A stretch of 11,445 bases of DNA from IMG/VR virus record IMGVR_UViG_3300029653_000033; one strand, given 5' to 3'. This DNA is from a virus (lineage: Duplodnaviria > Heunggongvirae > Uroviricota > Caudoviricetes). Positions 5,013 through 7,973 of this stretch are shown here, in pieces (within the stretch, counting starts at the first letter, position 1; each line of letters opens with the position of its first letter). The notes under the pieces are model-generated. The model ran no database searches. It saw only the letters and a list, made by a program, of their open reading frames with translations, and was not told where the DNA came from. A program made the position numbers and the translations under genes.

Positions 5013-7973
5013 TTAGTTGTTGGCCACCGGACGCGCCTCTTCAACTGGCATCGGGGTATCAACATACACATTGCCAGCTGCTGTTGCGGTCCCCTTCCCT
5101 CGTGCACGTTCTTCTAGCGTTCCCTGAACGACTTCTCGACGCATCCCCCGGCCATTCATGAATTTGTTGACCAGATCGTTAACGCCAACAGCATTGCCGA
5201 TTTTGTCTACCAGACCGCCTTTCTCAAACGGGCTATCACCAGGGGTAAACGCCAGACCAGTAGACTGATCGATAACGGCGTTATCAGGCAGTGGTCCCCT
5301 CACTCCATATTGCGCCCCACCCTGTGCTCCTGCCCCAGGTGTATAGATTTCACCACCTAAATAGCGAGCACGATGAGTATTGACCTTGATCGCGTACTCA
5401 CGGTTTTCCTTCGATAAGTCACCGGTGCCTTTTTTCCACTTATTAATAGTGCCAAACCCAGCGTTATATGCAGTGATGGCCTCGTTTAAGTCTCCATTGG
5501 CTTGCTTCAGATACTTGCTCATGAGAAGAGCCGCAGCTTCTGCCGATTTCACAGGATCAAACGATTCACCTTCAGCTAAGCCAGTCTCTTCACGAGCAAT
5601 GCCCGTGAACTGAAACATTCCTAGAGCACCAGTTTGGGATTTTGCGTATGGATTACCACCAGATTCAGTTGCAGCAATCGCGTAAAGAGTGCCTTCAGGA
5701 AGACCATATTTATTCTCTAGTTCAGCAAAATACGGAGCTAACTTATCGAGATTTGCCTTACCTTCAGCGCCAAGGCTTCCGACTTTTACATCTAAGTTGC
5801 CATTATTGTAGGTATCAGCAGCTTTCTGAATGTCATTCCCAGTGCCGGTGGTATTACGCGACGATGATGACGAGCTATTTTGACCAATAGCTTTATCAAT
5901 TTTCTGCAACGCGCGATTGCCCGTTTCTACGGCATTTGCATTGATAATCTGATTGGCAGTTTGTTTAACTGTTTTATTGCTATCTTTCGCTGTGTCCAGT
6001 GCCGCATTTATCACGCGGGTAGCAATATTACTCTGTTTGGCATCGGATTCAGTTTTAGAATTAGACGTCTCCTGGTGGCTATTAACCGGAGCTTTTAACT
6101 CTGGAGTGATTTCTTTCGCATTAGCCTCGCCGATCGGATTGGGTATTTTTGATACAATCATTGCCGCAGGGGTATTTTTAACGGCATCAACCGCTGCATC
6201 TAATGCTTTACCGGGTAAATTTTTAACCCCATCCCAAATATTACCAGCCGCCTCTTTAATGTGTTTCCCTGGGTTCTTAATGAAATCAATTGCACTATCA
6301 ATTGCATCACTGAAAACCTGTTTCAGGTTATCGACAGTAAAGAAGTCTTTGATGGCATCCAGCTTTTCAAGCAGCTTATTAGATGTATCGCTAAACCATG
6401 CTGAAACAGCATCACCAATCTTTGCTGTGTAATCATCGAACTTGGTAGAAATCGTGTCGCCAAGGTTAGAAATATATGTTTCTAAGTTGGTAATCCCACT
6501 ATCAATGGCCTGGGCAATACTTTCCGTCGAAAATGATTGCAACATATTGCCGATATCCTCAAATCCAAGTGATTTGAGAACCTCACCAATGGCGCTGCTA
6601 ATACCAGATACAAGTCCCCCCATATCAAGAACATTAGCTAACGTATAAGCGGCTTTTTGCTGGAATGATGGATCTTGTCCTGATTTAAGCCCAAACGCTC
6701 GACGTTGCGCTTCTGTATCATTCCAACCGGTTACCGCATCATAAATACCTCCAGCCACTGTGCCGACCAGGGGAATTGCGCGTAACGCCCCTTTACCAAC
6801 TGCCTTTAATCCAAGTTTACCTGCTGCCCGGGCAGCCAAATCTCCGCCTTCATGGGCGAGAGTCTTCTTGCCACCACCGCGTAGCATTCCTACAAGTTTC
6901 TTTGCCCCCAGAGCGCCAAAAGCGAGTGCTCCAGCTTTTTTCAGCATGCCACGCCCCATTAACAACGACGCGACGCCACCGGCCCCCTTCCCTAACAGGC
7001 TAAATAATTTGGACAGCAAGCCGCCCTTCTTTTTCCCGGTGTTTTTGGCTATCTGATCAAGGGCGCTGAGAATCTTGTCATTGCCCTCTTTAATTTCGCT
7101 GGTCTGCTCCTGAAGTTCCTGAACCGTCCGTTTTTGGGTGTTAACCTGAACGACATCGGCACTATTTTGCGATTTACGCCTAAAAAAACCTTTTCTACGG
7201 CTGTTATCGTCATTGCCACGAATCACATCGGCAATAGACTTTCTGGCACCATTAAGCGATCCACCAACTTCTTTTGATATCCCGCCAAGCTCCTTCCCTG
7301 CGGCCCACAATGGACCAGCAACGGCATAACCTAACGCATCGACGGCACGAGTCTCTGAAGGGTTACCTATGCCTTCAGCTACTTTTGACAGTTTTTTTAA
7401 TAAACCTGATTCAGCATTTAGACGCTCATCATCCTCTTTGCGCCTGTCCTTTTCAGCACGTTCAGCACGGGCATCTTCCGCTGCGGCCTTACTCCCTGAC
7501 TTTCCAATAAAACGACCACGCGCATCGCGTTGGTTTTGGCTTTTTTGCGCACCGCCTTTTTGACCGAACATTTCGCGAGCGTGTTCGGCTGCTTCGGTCC
7601 GTTGCACCTTTACATCTTCTGTTATAGCCTTCTTGCGTCGTTTTTTACCCTTTCGCGTAGTTGATTTGGCCTGCGGTTCCTGTAGAGCAACATCCTCCTG
7701 AACTACACGAGAAACGTCCCCTAAATTAAGCCGTTTCATTGCGTCAACAATAGGGTCTACGGATGGCGCTTTGGCCACAAAGTCAGGCCGGGAATTTTCG
7801 ATTATGCGATTTAATGCCGACACGCTGCGAGAGACAGGATCAACAGTTGCAACGCGTCCCCCTTTCAAATCTTCAACAGCTTCCCGGATACCTGCAAGCT
7901 CTTCCAGCTCTTTTGCGCTGGCGGTTTCAACTGTCCTTATAACATCGTCAATGTTGGCGTTTTTTCTTTCCAT
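5013..7973 (-). CDS. Tail tape-measure-like / injection protein with a lytic transglycosylase (SLT) domain, 986 aa
   Basis: Long ORF. N-terminal acidic, coiled-coil-like region; a highly basic stretch (KSTTRKGKKRRKK... RKEDDERL); Gly/Ala/Leu-rich hydrophobic segments (GKKKGGLLSKLFSLLGKGAGGVASLLMGRGMLKKAGALAFGALGAKK...) typical of tape-measure and ejection proteins; and a family-1 lytic transglycosylase signature near residues 760-850: LYAIAATESGGNPYA ... GALGMFQF ... AITAYNAG. By context possibly the counterpart of P1 Sit. Confidence 0.9.
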   Translation of the reverse strand: MERKNANIDDVIRTVETASAKELEELAGIREAVEDLKGGRVATVDPVSRSVSALNRIIENSRPDFVAKAPSVDPIVDAMKRLNLGDVSRVVQEDVALQEPQAKSTTRKGKKRRKKAITEDVKVQRTEAAEHAREMFGQKGGAQKSQNQRDARGRFIGKSGSKAAAEDARAERAEKDRRKEDDERLNAESGLLKKLSKVAEGIGNPSETRAVDALGYAVAGPLWAAGKELGGISKEVGGSLNGARKSIADVIRGNDDNSRRKGFFRRKSQNSADVVQVNTQKRTVQELQEQTSEIKEGNDKILSALDQIAKNTGKKKGGLLSKLFSLLGKGAGGVASLLMGRGMLKKAGALAFGALGAKKLVGMLRGGGKKTLAHEGGDLAARAAGKLGLKAVGKGALRAIPLVGTVAGGIYDAVTGWNDTEAQRRAFGLKSGQDPSFQQKAAYTLANVLDMGGLVSGISSAIGEVLKSLGFEDIGNMLQSFSTESIAQAIDSGITNLETYISNLGDTISTKFDDYTAKIGDAVSAWFSDTSNKLLEKLDAIKDFFTVDNLKQVFSDAIDSAIDFIKNPGKHIKEAAGNIWDGVKNLPGKALDAAVDAVKNTPAAMIVSKIPNPIGEANAKEITPELKAPVNSHQETSNSKTESDAKQSNIATRVINAALDTAKDSNKTVKQTANQIINANAVETGNRALQKIDKAIGQNSSSSSSRNTTGTGNDIQKAADTYNNGNLDVKVGSLGAEGKANLDKLAPYFAELENKYGLPEGTLYAIAATESGGNPYAKSQTGALGMFQFTGIAREETGLAEGESFDPVKSAEAAALLMSKYLKQANGDLNEAITAYNAGFGTINKWKKGTGDLSKENREYAIKVNTHRARYLGGEIYTPGAGAQGGAQYGVRGPLPDNAVIDQSTGLAFTPGDSPFEKGGLVDKIGNAVGVNDLVNKFMNGRGMRREVVQGTLEERARGKGTATAAGNVYVDTPMPVEEARPVANN

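Follow-up and report, generated by a model that had tools for sequence, protein, structure and literature searches.

A nonsense-truncated allele of the tail transglycosylase gene sit in a P1/P7-like phage-plasmid

The open reading frame (ORF) of 986 codons described here lies in a stretch of 11,445 nucleotides (referred to as the window) and, on comparison with the phages P1 and P7, is an orthologue by descent of their sit gene, present as an allele truncated by a premature stop codon. With a probability of roughly 85%, the sequence is best read as the nonsense-truncated sit of a P1/P7-like phage-plasmid which most likely makes no functional tails and is kept as a plasmid. Taken at face value by a gene caller or a reader, such an ORF leads to a nonsense-truncated pseudogene being mis-described as a native protein. 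The allele marks a nearly clonal lineage of P1-like plasmids, probably no longer spreading as a phage, and is relevant to judging the mobility of such phage-plasmids in gut E. coli. An SLT-bearing tape measure is already known from P1-like phages (annotated since 1998-2004 and re-examined in 2022-2026) and carries little weight as a discovery. The earlier note on this DNA, which described a tape-measure-like protein of 986 aa with a lytic transglycosylase domain, was in this respect essentially right, though not novel: the SLT domain is intact and the protein is a Sit orthologue, but 986 aa is the length of a truncated allele and not of the native protein.

The sit gene and its transglycosylase domain

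The features of the ORF are as follows.

5013..7973, minus strand: sit ORF as it stands (ATG, 986 codons and TAA), the N-terminal 87% of the P7-type 1130-aa Sit
7629..7652, minus strand: polybasic block KGKKRRKK, aa 108-115 (read from the sequence)
6684..6998, minus strand: Gly/Ala/Leu-rich, Lys-studded amphipathic region, aa 326-430 (composition and hydropathy)
6078..6128, minus strand: 17-aa unit in single copy, EANAKEIT-PELKAPVNS, aa 616-632 (protein alignment)
5403..5732, minus strand: SLT domain (family-1 lytic transglycosylase, GH23), aa 748-857 (PF01464)
5655-5669, minus strand: TESGG motif, aa 769-773
5664..5666, minus strand: codon of Glu770, predicted catalytic acid of the T-E-S motif (MltC alignment)
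5607-5621, minus strand: GMFQF motif, aa 785-789
5457-5471, minus strand: AYNAG motif, aa 835-839

A profile search with phrog_2533 placed residues 1-986 of the ORF on positions 1-986 of the 1130 profile positions (E=0). In an alignment of 12 Sit sequences the protein is 96-98% identical to its homologues, while the DNA identity of sit amounts to 98.0% with P7 and 95.6% with P1, both of whose records annotate the gene as 'putative structural injection transglycosylase; putative tail ruler'. The Sit proteins of P7 (AAQ07509.1, 1130 aa) and P1 (YP_006507.1, 1140 aa) are encoded by the same gene in the same operon, are colinear with all 986 residues of the window and share its SLT motifs, its polybasic (KR) block and its Gly/Ala/Leu-rich region; P1 Sit differs by a 10-aa loop (TLTRSPNGKL) inside the SLT domain, which is absent from the window. 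All the features listed in the earlier note are present; they lie on the minus strand, the note having given no strand for the ORF.

The proposal of an intact SLT catalytic signature (TESGG, GMFQF, AYNAG) is borne out. All the motifs are present, and the Pfam search that had been suggested gave a strong match to PF01464, far beyond chance (E=2.1e-27, with a score of 95.4 bits where the cut-off is 21.3, over 114 of 117 profile positions), while the same region matched the MltC, MltD and Slt models of NCBIfam. In phmmer alignments, Glu770-Ser771 fall on 'QTES' of E. coli MltC (4c5f) and on 'QIES' of a second MltC structure, 9vi7, so that Glu770 is aligned with the Glu of the MltC ES motif, which we take to be the catalytic residue of that enzyme. 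Consensus motif II (G-L-M-Q) appears as GMFQ (785-788) and motif III (A-Y-N-x-G) as AYNAG (835-839); Glu770, the ES pair, GMFQF and AYNAG are invariant in the 12 Sit sequences. The ORF hence encodes an intact family-1 lytic transglycosylase domain with predicted activity. MltC (PDB 4c5f) and Slt70 share this signature with Sit (ES motif, GLMQ-like GMFQ and AYNxG), but the likeness is at domain level only (phmmer E about 1e-4 to 1e-5), and these are periplasmic housekeeping enzymes whereas Sit is a virion component. The further proposal that the virion probably carries its own peptidoglycan-cleaving activity may not hold here, because a nonsense codon cuts short what is otherwise a 1130-aa protein and the element may make no tails.

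Within the polybasic block, the Sit family shows no variation at K108, G109, K110, K111, R112, R113 and K115. The Gly/Ala/Leu-rich region (G24, A19, L16 and K11 in 105 residues) is nearly invariant across the family, and residues 374-524 match phrog_7182, 'tail injection transglycosylase' (E=5e-49). Membrane insertion had been suggested for these segments; nevertheless, the region is Lys-studded and amphipathic and unlike a classical transmembrane helix, since its Kyte-Doolittle 19-residue maxima are only 1.2-1.35. Longer Sit variants of P1-like plasmids (1224-1307 aa) include P0027, P0036 and P0098, as well as that of phage phi456 (1231 aa); they show 96-98% identity to the window in shared columns and an identical C-terminal 144 aa. 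Near the N-terminus they carry a tandem duplication of a 99-aa unit, inside which the polybasic block lies, and they hold the 17-aa unit as tandem repeats of two to six copies (up to 5-6), whereas the window has one copy of each. No tandem repeats of note are found in the window's own sit; they appear in the longer homologues only.

The stop at codon 987 and its distribution

Two features define the truncation.

5013..5015, minus strand: premature ochre codon TAA at sit codon 987 (TCA, Ser, in homologues)
4581..5012, minus strand: in-frame 3' remnant of sit, 143 codons and the native TGA (read-through translation)

The change is of a single base, plus-strand position 5014 being T here and G elsewhere (C-to-A on the coding strand). 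A codon-level DNA alignment gives Ser opposite codon 987 in P1, P7 and Ro157c2YLVW. The corresponding residue is also Ser in the proteins of nine more full-length homologues, and TCA stands in the closest complete record (NZ_CP034659.1), which shows 3 differences in 11,445 bases. The length of 986 aa is therefore correct for the ORF as read, but it is set by a premature in-frame TAA, and the homologous frame runs 143 codons further (to 1130 aa in P7). Since Ser987 is replaced by an ochre stop, the predicted product retains the helical part and the SLT domain in full and loses the last 144 residues.

Beyond the TAA, the sit frame stays open for 143 codons to 4584, with the stop at 4581-4583, and the encoded remnant matches the C-terminus of P1 and P7 Sit. 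It is also called as a separate 134-aa ORF (4581..4985, minus strand), which matches phrog_2533 positions 997-1130 (E=1.5e-91); the frame of this PHROG family through its conserved C-terminal 144 residues is thus interrupted by the TAA in the window. These 144 residues are at least 90% invariant among 11 full-length homologues. Neither Pfam nor NCBIfam gave a match in the remnant, a homologue search with it returned only fragments of Sit itself, and a PDB search with the lost C-terminal 143 residues gave nothing significant, the best hit (a K88 fimbrial protein, E=0.9) being taken as chance.

Identical TAA-bearing contigs were found in at least seven run/analysis accessions: ERR912081 (two assemblies), SRR33981406, SRR5024506 (contig in 3 samples), ERZ27305817, ERR14928264, ERR10113986 and ERZ21844581. 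The carriers are nearly clonal (0-4 differences), with one contig (L015) showing four further differences elsewhere. A 45-mer carrying TAA, whose wild-type control matched 301 records, had no match among the 5,426 complete genomes of E. coli searched with both flank types, nor in PLSDB, searched with window-type flanks only, and the allele was absent from IMG/VR, where the wild type stands on 76 contigs, as well as from JGI metagenomes and GTDB representatives. Because the carriers are nearly clonal, the allele appears to be young and its persistence says little on phage fitness; because the lineage occurs in several independent datasets, truncation would at least not be strongly counter-selected for plasmid carriage. 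Our inference is that sit recently lost its function, by mutation, in a lineage of phage-plasmids that may be persisting as a plasmid.

Three other contigs (L016, L017 and L019) were not counted as carriers; these are other variants, 98% identical, whose sequence does not reach the stop position, and their start 2-3 nt before ATG 4985 is attributed to selection by the exact-sequence look-up. PRJEB9576 is a reused human gut cohort.

Probable consequences of the truncation and rival readings

Sit is a long protein, predicted to be mostly alpha-helical, that is assigned to the lumen of the P1 tail tube and the centre of the baseplate, from which sheath contraction would expel it. The SLT domain would lie near the baseplate-proximal C-terminal end, and Glu770 would cleave the MurNAc-GlcNAc bond, providing a local opening of the peptidoglycan through which tube and DNA could pass. 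To judge from other tape measures, the lost 144 residues probably anchor Sit in the baseplate hub and thereby start tube assembly. A truncated sit would then most likely yield no functional tails, with the phage-plasmid kept as a plasmid.

Conceivably, the truncation could be tolerated by the phage. The split gene might still work, either with 986 aa sufficing or with the C-terminal 134-143 residues being re-initiated at ATG 4985 and acting in trans, which we consider unlikely. The downstream piece is intact and in frame, the next in-frame ATG (4985) lies 27 nt past the TAA, the other tail genes in the window are all intact, and the allele does recur across the accessions listed above. Moreover, in some tape measures (lambda gpH and T5 pb2) a C-terminal piece is removed by proteolysis once they have been assembled. 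On the other hand, ATG 4985 is not preceded by a Shine-Dalgarno sequence (no GGAG, GAGG or AGGA within 20 nt upstream), and Sit is a single polypeptide in 11 of 11 full-length homologues aligned as well as in the best 120 database matches (1224-1307 aa). The absence of the allele from the complete E. coli genomes, PLSDB and IMG/VR, together with the youth and near-clonality of its carriers, also argues against a working split gene, and plasmid maintenance needs no tails. Fragmented sit annotations in the phages 813R1 and 673R5 were not taken to speak for a viable split sit, their assemblies appearing error-ridden.

In its most specific form, this would make the lineage infective with a two-piece tape measure, composed of a 986-aa ruler-transglycosylase and a separately translated 134-aa hub anchor, which is very unlikely. 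If true, it would mean that a tape measure can have its hub-anchoring module supplied in trans; more generally, a functional truncated Sit would delimit the portion of a tape measure that can be dispensed with or detached.

Loss of function by a genuine stop codon has also to be set against two weaker explanations. That the stop is a sequencing or assembly artefact in a normal 1130-aa sit, as the single-base difference from the nearest complete record (TCA) and the commonness of plus-strand G-to-T as a damage-type error might suggest, is scarcely credible, for the same base was obtained from different runs and assemblers (MEGAHIT k127 and k141, a SPAdes-style NODE contig and Logan) and the carrier L015 differs at four other positions. 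Just as remote is the decoding of TAA by programmed read-through or in an ochre-suppressor host to give 986-aa and 1130-aa products: the frame is open beyond the TAA, but every relative examined has TCA at this position, which gives no hint of a conserved recoding site, UAA leaks less than the other stop codons of E. coli, and a search of the whole window with Rfam found no RNA element or structured signal.

The proposed ruler role and the tail operon

The description of the protein as tape-measure-like holds by its operon position, size, predicted helicity and the P1 literature, on which it rests because no Pfam tape-measure family is matched (SLT is the sole Pfam hit at E<=0.01); NCBIfam tape-measure models likewise gave no match to the ORF. 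Sit would thus function like a tape measure without being a sequence member of the Pfam or NCBIfam tape-measure families. In the literature it is treated as both tail tape measure and injection muralytic enzyme (PMC9024508, PMC12810830, PMC10695390). It was detected in P1 virions by LC-MS/MS, assigned as a tape measure with an SLT domain and predicted by Quick2D to be predominantly helical (PMC9024508), and CRISPRi knockdown of sit severely impaired plaque formation by P1 (PMC10695390). Contracted P1 particles have ejected the tape measure and show unresolved density in the baseplate centre, while Sit itself is not resolved in the cryo-EM maps (PMC12810830). By DSSP, about 500 of the first 730 residues (~68%) are helical on a low-confidence AlphaFold2 model of the 986-aa ORF (mean pLDDT 33.8; 54-66 in parts of the SLT domain), in line with the Quick2D result for P1 Sit; the model was built from a 10-row alignment of near-identical homologues and its secondary structure alone was used, with caution.

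Sit may instead be an ejected muralytic and channel-forming protein, with tail length set otherwise and its likeness to a tape measure no more than a resemblance, a view that we hold to be improbable. It draws on the arithmetic of the P1 tail: at 1.5 A per residue, the 1140 aa of P1 Sit span ~1710 A and the helical part (~750 aa) ~1125 A, whereas the tube, with 53 rings of 40 A each, measures ~2100 A, and a match needs ~1.85 A per residue. Congruence was argued from a tail length of '120 nm' (PMC9024508), which conflicts with the cryo-EM value of ~2100 A, and gene 6 mutants, as cited in PMC9024508, gave variable tail lengths; the want of a Pfam tape-measure match points the same way. Against this view, gp6 is the baseplate hub, and Sit is virion-associated and ejected on contraction (PMC9024508, PMC12810830). 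Sit is also the sole tail-operon protein long enough for a ruler, with an N-terminal region of 730 residues that is ~68% helical in the low-confidence model. Furthermore, its length varies from 1130 to 1307 aa by internal tandem repeats, a polymorphism that known rulers show.

Among other phages, T5 pb2 has a peptidase-type domain as well as hydrophobic, fusogenic segments and TM4 has a short motif, neither being SLT/GH23, and both are siphophages, not contractile-tailed. T5 pb2 and mycobacteriophage TM4 Tmp have no detectable sequence relationship to Sit; they share its design, a ruler with a peptidoglycan-degrading module delivered on ejection (PMC9024508). T4 gp5, the tail lysozyme, is a functional analogue of Sit as a virion-borne enzyme opening the peptidoglycan at the tail tip, but it has a T4-lysozyme-type fold and is carried on the spike protein, in both of which it differs from Sit. 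P1 gp5 is without this lysozyme domain, and the activity is ascribed to Sit instead (PMC9024508).

What the window holds is the tail/baseplate operon of a phage-plasmid of the P1/P7 type (Punavirus), in which three further features bear on sit.

8055..8936, minus strand: pmgB, directly upstream of sit (phrog_1854, E=1e-154; synteny with P1 and P7)
10171..10189, minus strand: late promoter LPsit, driving pmgC-tub-pmgB-sit and the downstream genes
4579..4583, minus strand: TGATG, in which the native sit stop (4581-4583) and the pmgA start (4579-4581) overlap (read from the sequence; P1 and P7 CDS coordinates)

The gene order simC-pmgC-tub-pmgB-sit-pmgA-bplA-16-R-S is fully syntenic with P1 and P7, and the neighbourhood pmgC-tub-pmgB-sit-pmgA-bplA-16-R-S behind LPsit is conserved, the 36 nt at 10164-10199 being identical to the P1 stretch that holds the annotated promoter. 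Within this tail module, sit follows pmgB, a proposed tape-measure chaperone (PMC9024508), and precedes pmgA, bplA and gene 16 (baseplate wedge). Pfam gave no credible match for the frames at 5953-6432 (+), 4660-5010 (+), 8274-8732 (+) and 7985-8290 (-), the three on the plus strand being rejected as genes and regarded as antisense or overlapping-frame noise.

An IS1 element sits in the non-essential simB. Since all the other morphogenesis ORFs of the window are full length, there is no sign of wider decay beyond this insertion. The TGATG overlap of sit and pmgA is a likely site of translational coupling between the two genes, and termination at codon 987 may for this reason also lower the expression of the downstream baseplate genes.

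Gene identity and the transglycosylase domain

Every large minus-strand ORF of the window corresponds to a P1 morphogenesis gene by PHROG profiles, the right-to-left order being SimC-like, PmgC, Tub, PmgB, the sit ORF, PmgA, BplA, gp16 and R, while the tail-fibre gene S is represented by its N-terminal part only (open for 478 codons and running off the left end of the window). Over a 3.7-kb region around the sit ORF, DNA identity amounts to 98.1% with phage Ro157c2YLVW, 98.0% with P7 and 95.6% with P1; the P1 and P7 records name the gene sit (‘putative structural injection transglycosylase; putative tail ruler’). 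This region is matched by 493 plasmid records, and P1-like elements matching it are present in 483 of 5,426 complete E. coli genomes. The late promoter upstream of pmgC, LPsit, does not differ from that of P1 at any base.

A simC-like gene lies to the right of pmgC (10349-11161, minus strand; phrog_14355, E=2e-191) in the same arrangement as in P1, and G+C falls to 0.35-0.39 in this segment. P7 harbours two unrelated membrane or lipoprotein genes at that position, though its sit is otherwise closer to that of the window, and the similarity to P7 ends at 10191, which makes the element, as judged from its sequence, a P7/P1 mosaic.

The ORF described in the earlier note is real (5013..7973, minus strand, ATG start, 986 codons followed by TAA) and carries the motifs attributed to it.

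Features of the 986-aa sit ORF (minus strand)
aa 108-115: polybasic block KGKKRRKK
aa 326-430: Gly/Ala/Leu-rich stretch (24 G, 19 A, 16 L and 11 K per 105 residues)
aa 769-773: TESGG
aa 785-789: GMFQF
aa 835-839: AYNAG

The sole Pfam match of the ORF is SLT (PF01464; aa 748-857), with 95.4 bits (cut-off 21.3) and E=2.1e-27. In a comparison with solved structures, E. coli MltC (4c5f) and another ‘lytic transglycosylase C’ (9vi7) aligned with the segment, Glu770-Ser771 being placed over the ‘ES’ catalytic motif of these enzymes and AYNAG over AYNGG. Neither of the refuting outcomes named in the earlier note, a missing SLT match or a misaligned Glu, was thus observed; by profile and alignment, the proposed SLT domain is real and its signature intact.

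Sit has been detected in purified P1 virions by LC-MS/MS and assigned as the tape-measure protein, with an SLT domain at ~residues 750-900 and a predominantly helical N-terminal two-thirds (Gonzales et al. 2022, PMC9024508). The same study compares Sit with T5 pb2 and TM4 Tmp, proposes that it supplies the muralytic activity that P1 gp5 is without, and suggests PmgB as the tape-measure chaperone. Plaque formation by P1 suffers severely under CRISPRi knockdown of sit (PMC10695390), and a 2026 cryo-EM study lists Sit, itself not resolved there, under the central part of the baseplate with the role of tape measure (PMC12810830). The initial reading of a tape measure with a transglycosylase domain agrees with this view and is right in substance, but it is already known rather than new, and it is incomplete in that the allele is nonsense-truncated.

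The ochre codon and its carriers

The annotated Sit proteins of P1 and P7 have 1140 and 1130 aa, respectively, in contrast to the 986 aa that had been taken as the native length. PHROG 2533 has 1130 positions, with the 986-aa ORF spanning 1-986 and the next ORF (4581..4985, 134 aa) spanning 997-1130; the two share one frame, with one stop codon and then nine sense codons between them. In the codon alignment, TAA in the window stands against TCA (Ser) in P7, P1 and Ro157c2YLVW, and Ser occupies the same column in nine further full-length protein homologues. Thus, the ORF is a sit allele cut short by TAA in place of TCA, its frame resuming to profile position 1130. The nearest complete record, NZ_CP034659.1 (a 454-kb plasmid of E. 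coli ATCC 98082), encodes a normal 1130-aa Sit in its RefSeq annotation and shows three differences over all 11,445 bases.

Differences between the window and NZ_CP034659.1
5014 (plus strand): T in the window, G in the record; the TAA base
8297: synonymous site in pmgB; the window carries the family's base
11368: inside IS1

Past the stop, nearly all columns of the 144-residue segment show at least 90% invariance among homologues that otherwise differ by large indels, which argues for functional constraint on this C-terminal segment.

In NZ_CP034659.1 (36193-57893), chromosomal genes flanked by IS1 (ysgD, corA) come after the P1-like segment, as do IS26 and IS5708 remnants, which suggests that this ‘plasmid’ is a large IS-mediated cointegrate and not a normal ~95-kb P1-type plasmid. 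In the window, an IS1 copy starting at 11323 (11323-11445) interrupts the superimmunity gene simB, with similarity to P1 ending at 11322; NZ_CP034659.1 shares this junction.

An ENA contig of 11.5 kb, derived from a human gut metagenome (ERR912081, PRJEB9576), is identical to the window. When the 986-aa and 134-aa products were looked up by exact sequence, TAA-bearing contigs were found in ERR912081 (two assemblies), SRR33981406, SRR5024506 (found in three samples), ERZ27305817, ERR14928264, ERR10113986 and ERZ21844581, produced by several assemblers. Only the ERR10113986 contig departs from the window, by four clustered differences in bplA; the others are 100% identical to it. Since the same allele recurs across several accessions and assemblers, it is, on these contigs, not a read or assembly error; it also marks a nearly clonal lineage. 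The bplA substitutions of the ERR10113986 contig fall within 22 nt (3590, 3599, 3602 and 3611), with no others in 2.7 kb, and look like a small recombination patch.

A 45-mer centred on the codon yielded no TAA allele in the 5,426 complete E. coli genomes (window-type and P7-type flanks; 301 records for the wild-type TCA control) or in PLSDB plasmids (window-type flanks only). With a 39-nt degenerate pattern, TAA was likewise absent from IMG/VR (76 contigs for the TCA control), JGI metagenomes and GTDB species representatives. The one mildly interesting remainder is the recurrent natural ochre allele and its bearing on the mobility of the phage-plasmid lineage.

Likely effect on tail assembly

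In tape measures of known position (lambda gpH, T4 gp29 and T5 pb2), it is from the C-terminus, located at the baseplate or tip, that tube assembly is nucleated, so tail initiation would be expected to fail upon loss of the strongly conserved 144-residue C-terminus of Sit. By analogy, this terminus would be oriented toward the baseplate, which fits the location of the SLT domain just upstream of the lost segment, the low-resolution density inside the P1 baseplate centre in cryo-EM, and ejection of the tape measure on contraction, contracted P1 particles being without it (PMC12810830). We consider it probable, at roughly two chances in three, that this is a phage-defective allele on a plasmid that still replicates.

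Tolerance of the truncation, or a sit functional in two pieces, is improbable: re-initiation at ATG 4985 is possible in principle, but no Shine-Dalgarno-like sequence was found ahead of it, and a two-gene organisation was found neither in the 11 full-length homologues aligned nor in the best 120 database matches.

The native stop codon of sit shares bases with the start codon of pmgA in the sequence TGATG (4579-4583, minus strand), an arrangement suggestive of translational coupling between sit and the baseplate genes; termination 430 nt early may consequently also lower translation of pmgA and of the baseplate wedge genes that follow. Searches of PDB, Pfam and NCBIfam gave no match for the C-terminal piece, and structure prediction of the 986-aa ORF (mean pLDDT 33.8) was too poor for use.

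Tape-measure assignment and length variation

The ‘tape-measure-like’ description is supported by operon position, size, helicity (~68% over residues 1-730, from a predicted model of low confidence) and the P1 literature; however, the ORF matches no tape-measure family in Pfam or NCBIfam, and the length rule does not hold cleanly. Cryo-EM gives a P1 tail of 2450 Å with a tube of 53 rings x 40 Å, ~2100 Å (PMC10304247), whereas 1140 residues at 1.5 Å span 1710 Å, the full span needing ~1.85 Å per residue. These dimensions conflict with the ‘120 nm’ tail to which ~750 helical Sit residues were fitted (PMC9024508). Sit lengths in P1-like plasmids are 1130, 1140, 1224, 1229, 1239, 1246, 1256, 1273, 1280, 1297 and 1307 aa, differences explained by four modular indels in the alignment of Sit homologues.

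Modular indels in Sit (window positions where assigned)
Unit junction ~7820-7830: 99-aa tandem duplication near the N-terminus
6078-6128: 17-aa repeat (PELKAPVNSEANAKEI[T/A]), 1 to 5-6 copies
~5630: 10-aa loop inside the SLT domain
In the alignment: 5-aa indel

Such a pattern would be expected of a tail ruler and, if Sit is one, predicts different tail lengths among P1-like phages.

The KR block is conserved and lies inside the 99-aa unit duplicated in longer variants, the extra copy reading NPPNRRRE in its place. The G/A/L-rich region is nearly invariant across the family, and aa 374-524 also match a second PHROG, ‘tail injection transglycosylase’. Of the ‘glycine-rich hydrophobic segments’ claimed in the earlier note, the Gly/Ala/Leu-rich composition stands but the hydrophobicity is only moderate; being lysine-rich, with 19-residue Kyte-Doolittle maxima of just 1.2-1.35, the region resembles an amphipathic segment more than it does a classical membrane span. 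Its insertion into membranes would be a reasonable analogy with T5 pb2, and nothing beyond.

A 101-aa ORF (7985-8290, minus strand) overlaps the 3' end of pmgB in the +1 frame, continues for 70 nt after the stop of pmgB and leaves 11 nt to the sit ATG. Pfam gave no match for this ORF, which terminates in ...AERLTESYAFFLLEKLEEKLKPKR and is also open in P1 and P7, whose sequences are too similar for a conservation test; either chance or a short frameshift that extends the proposed chaperone PmgB, as in lambda G/GT, could account for it.
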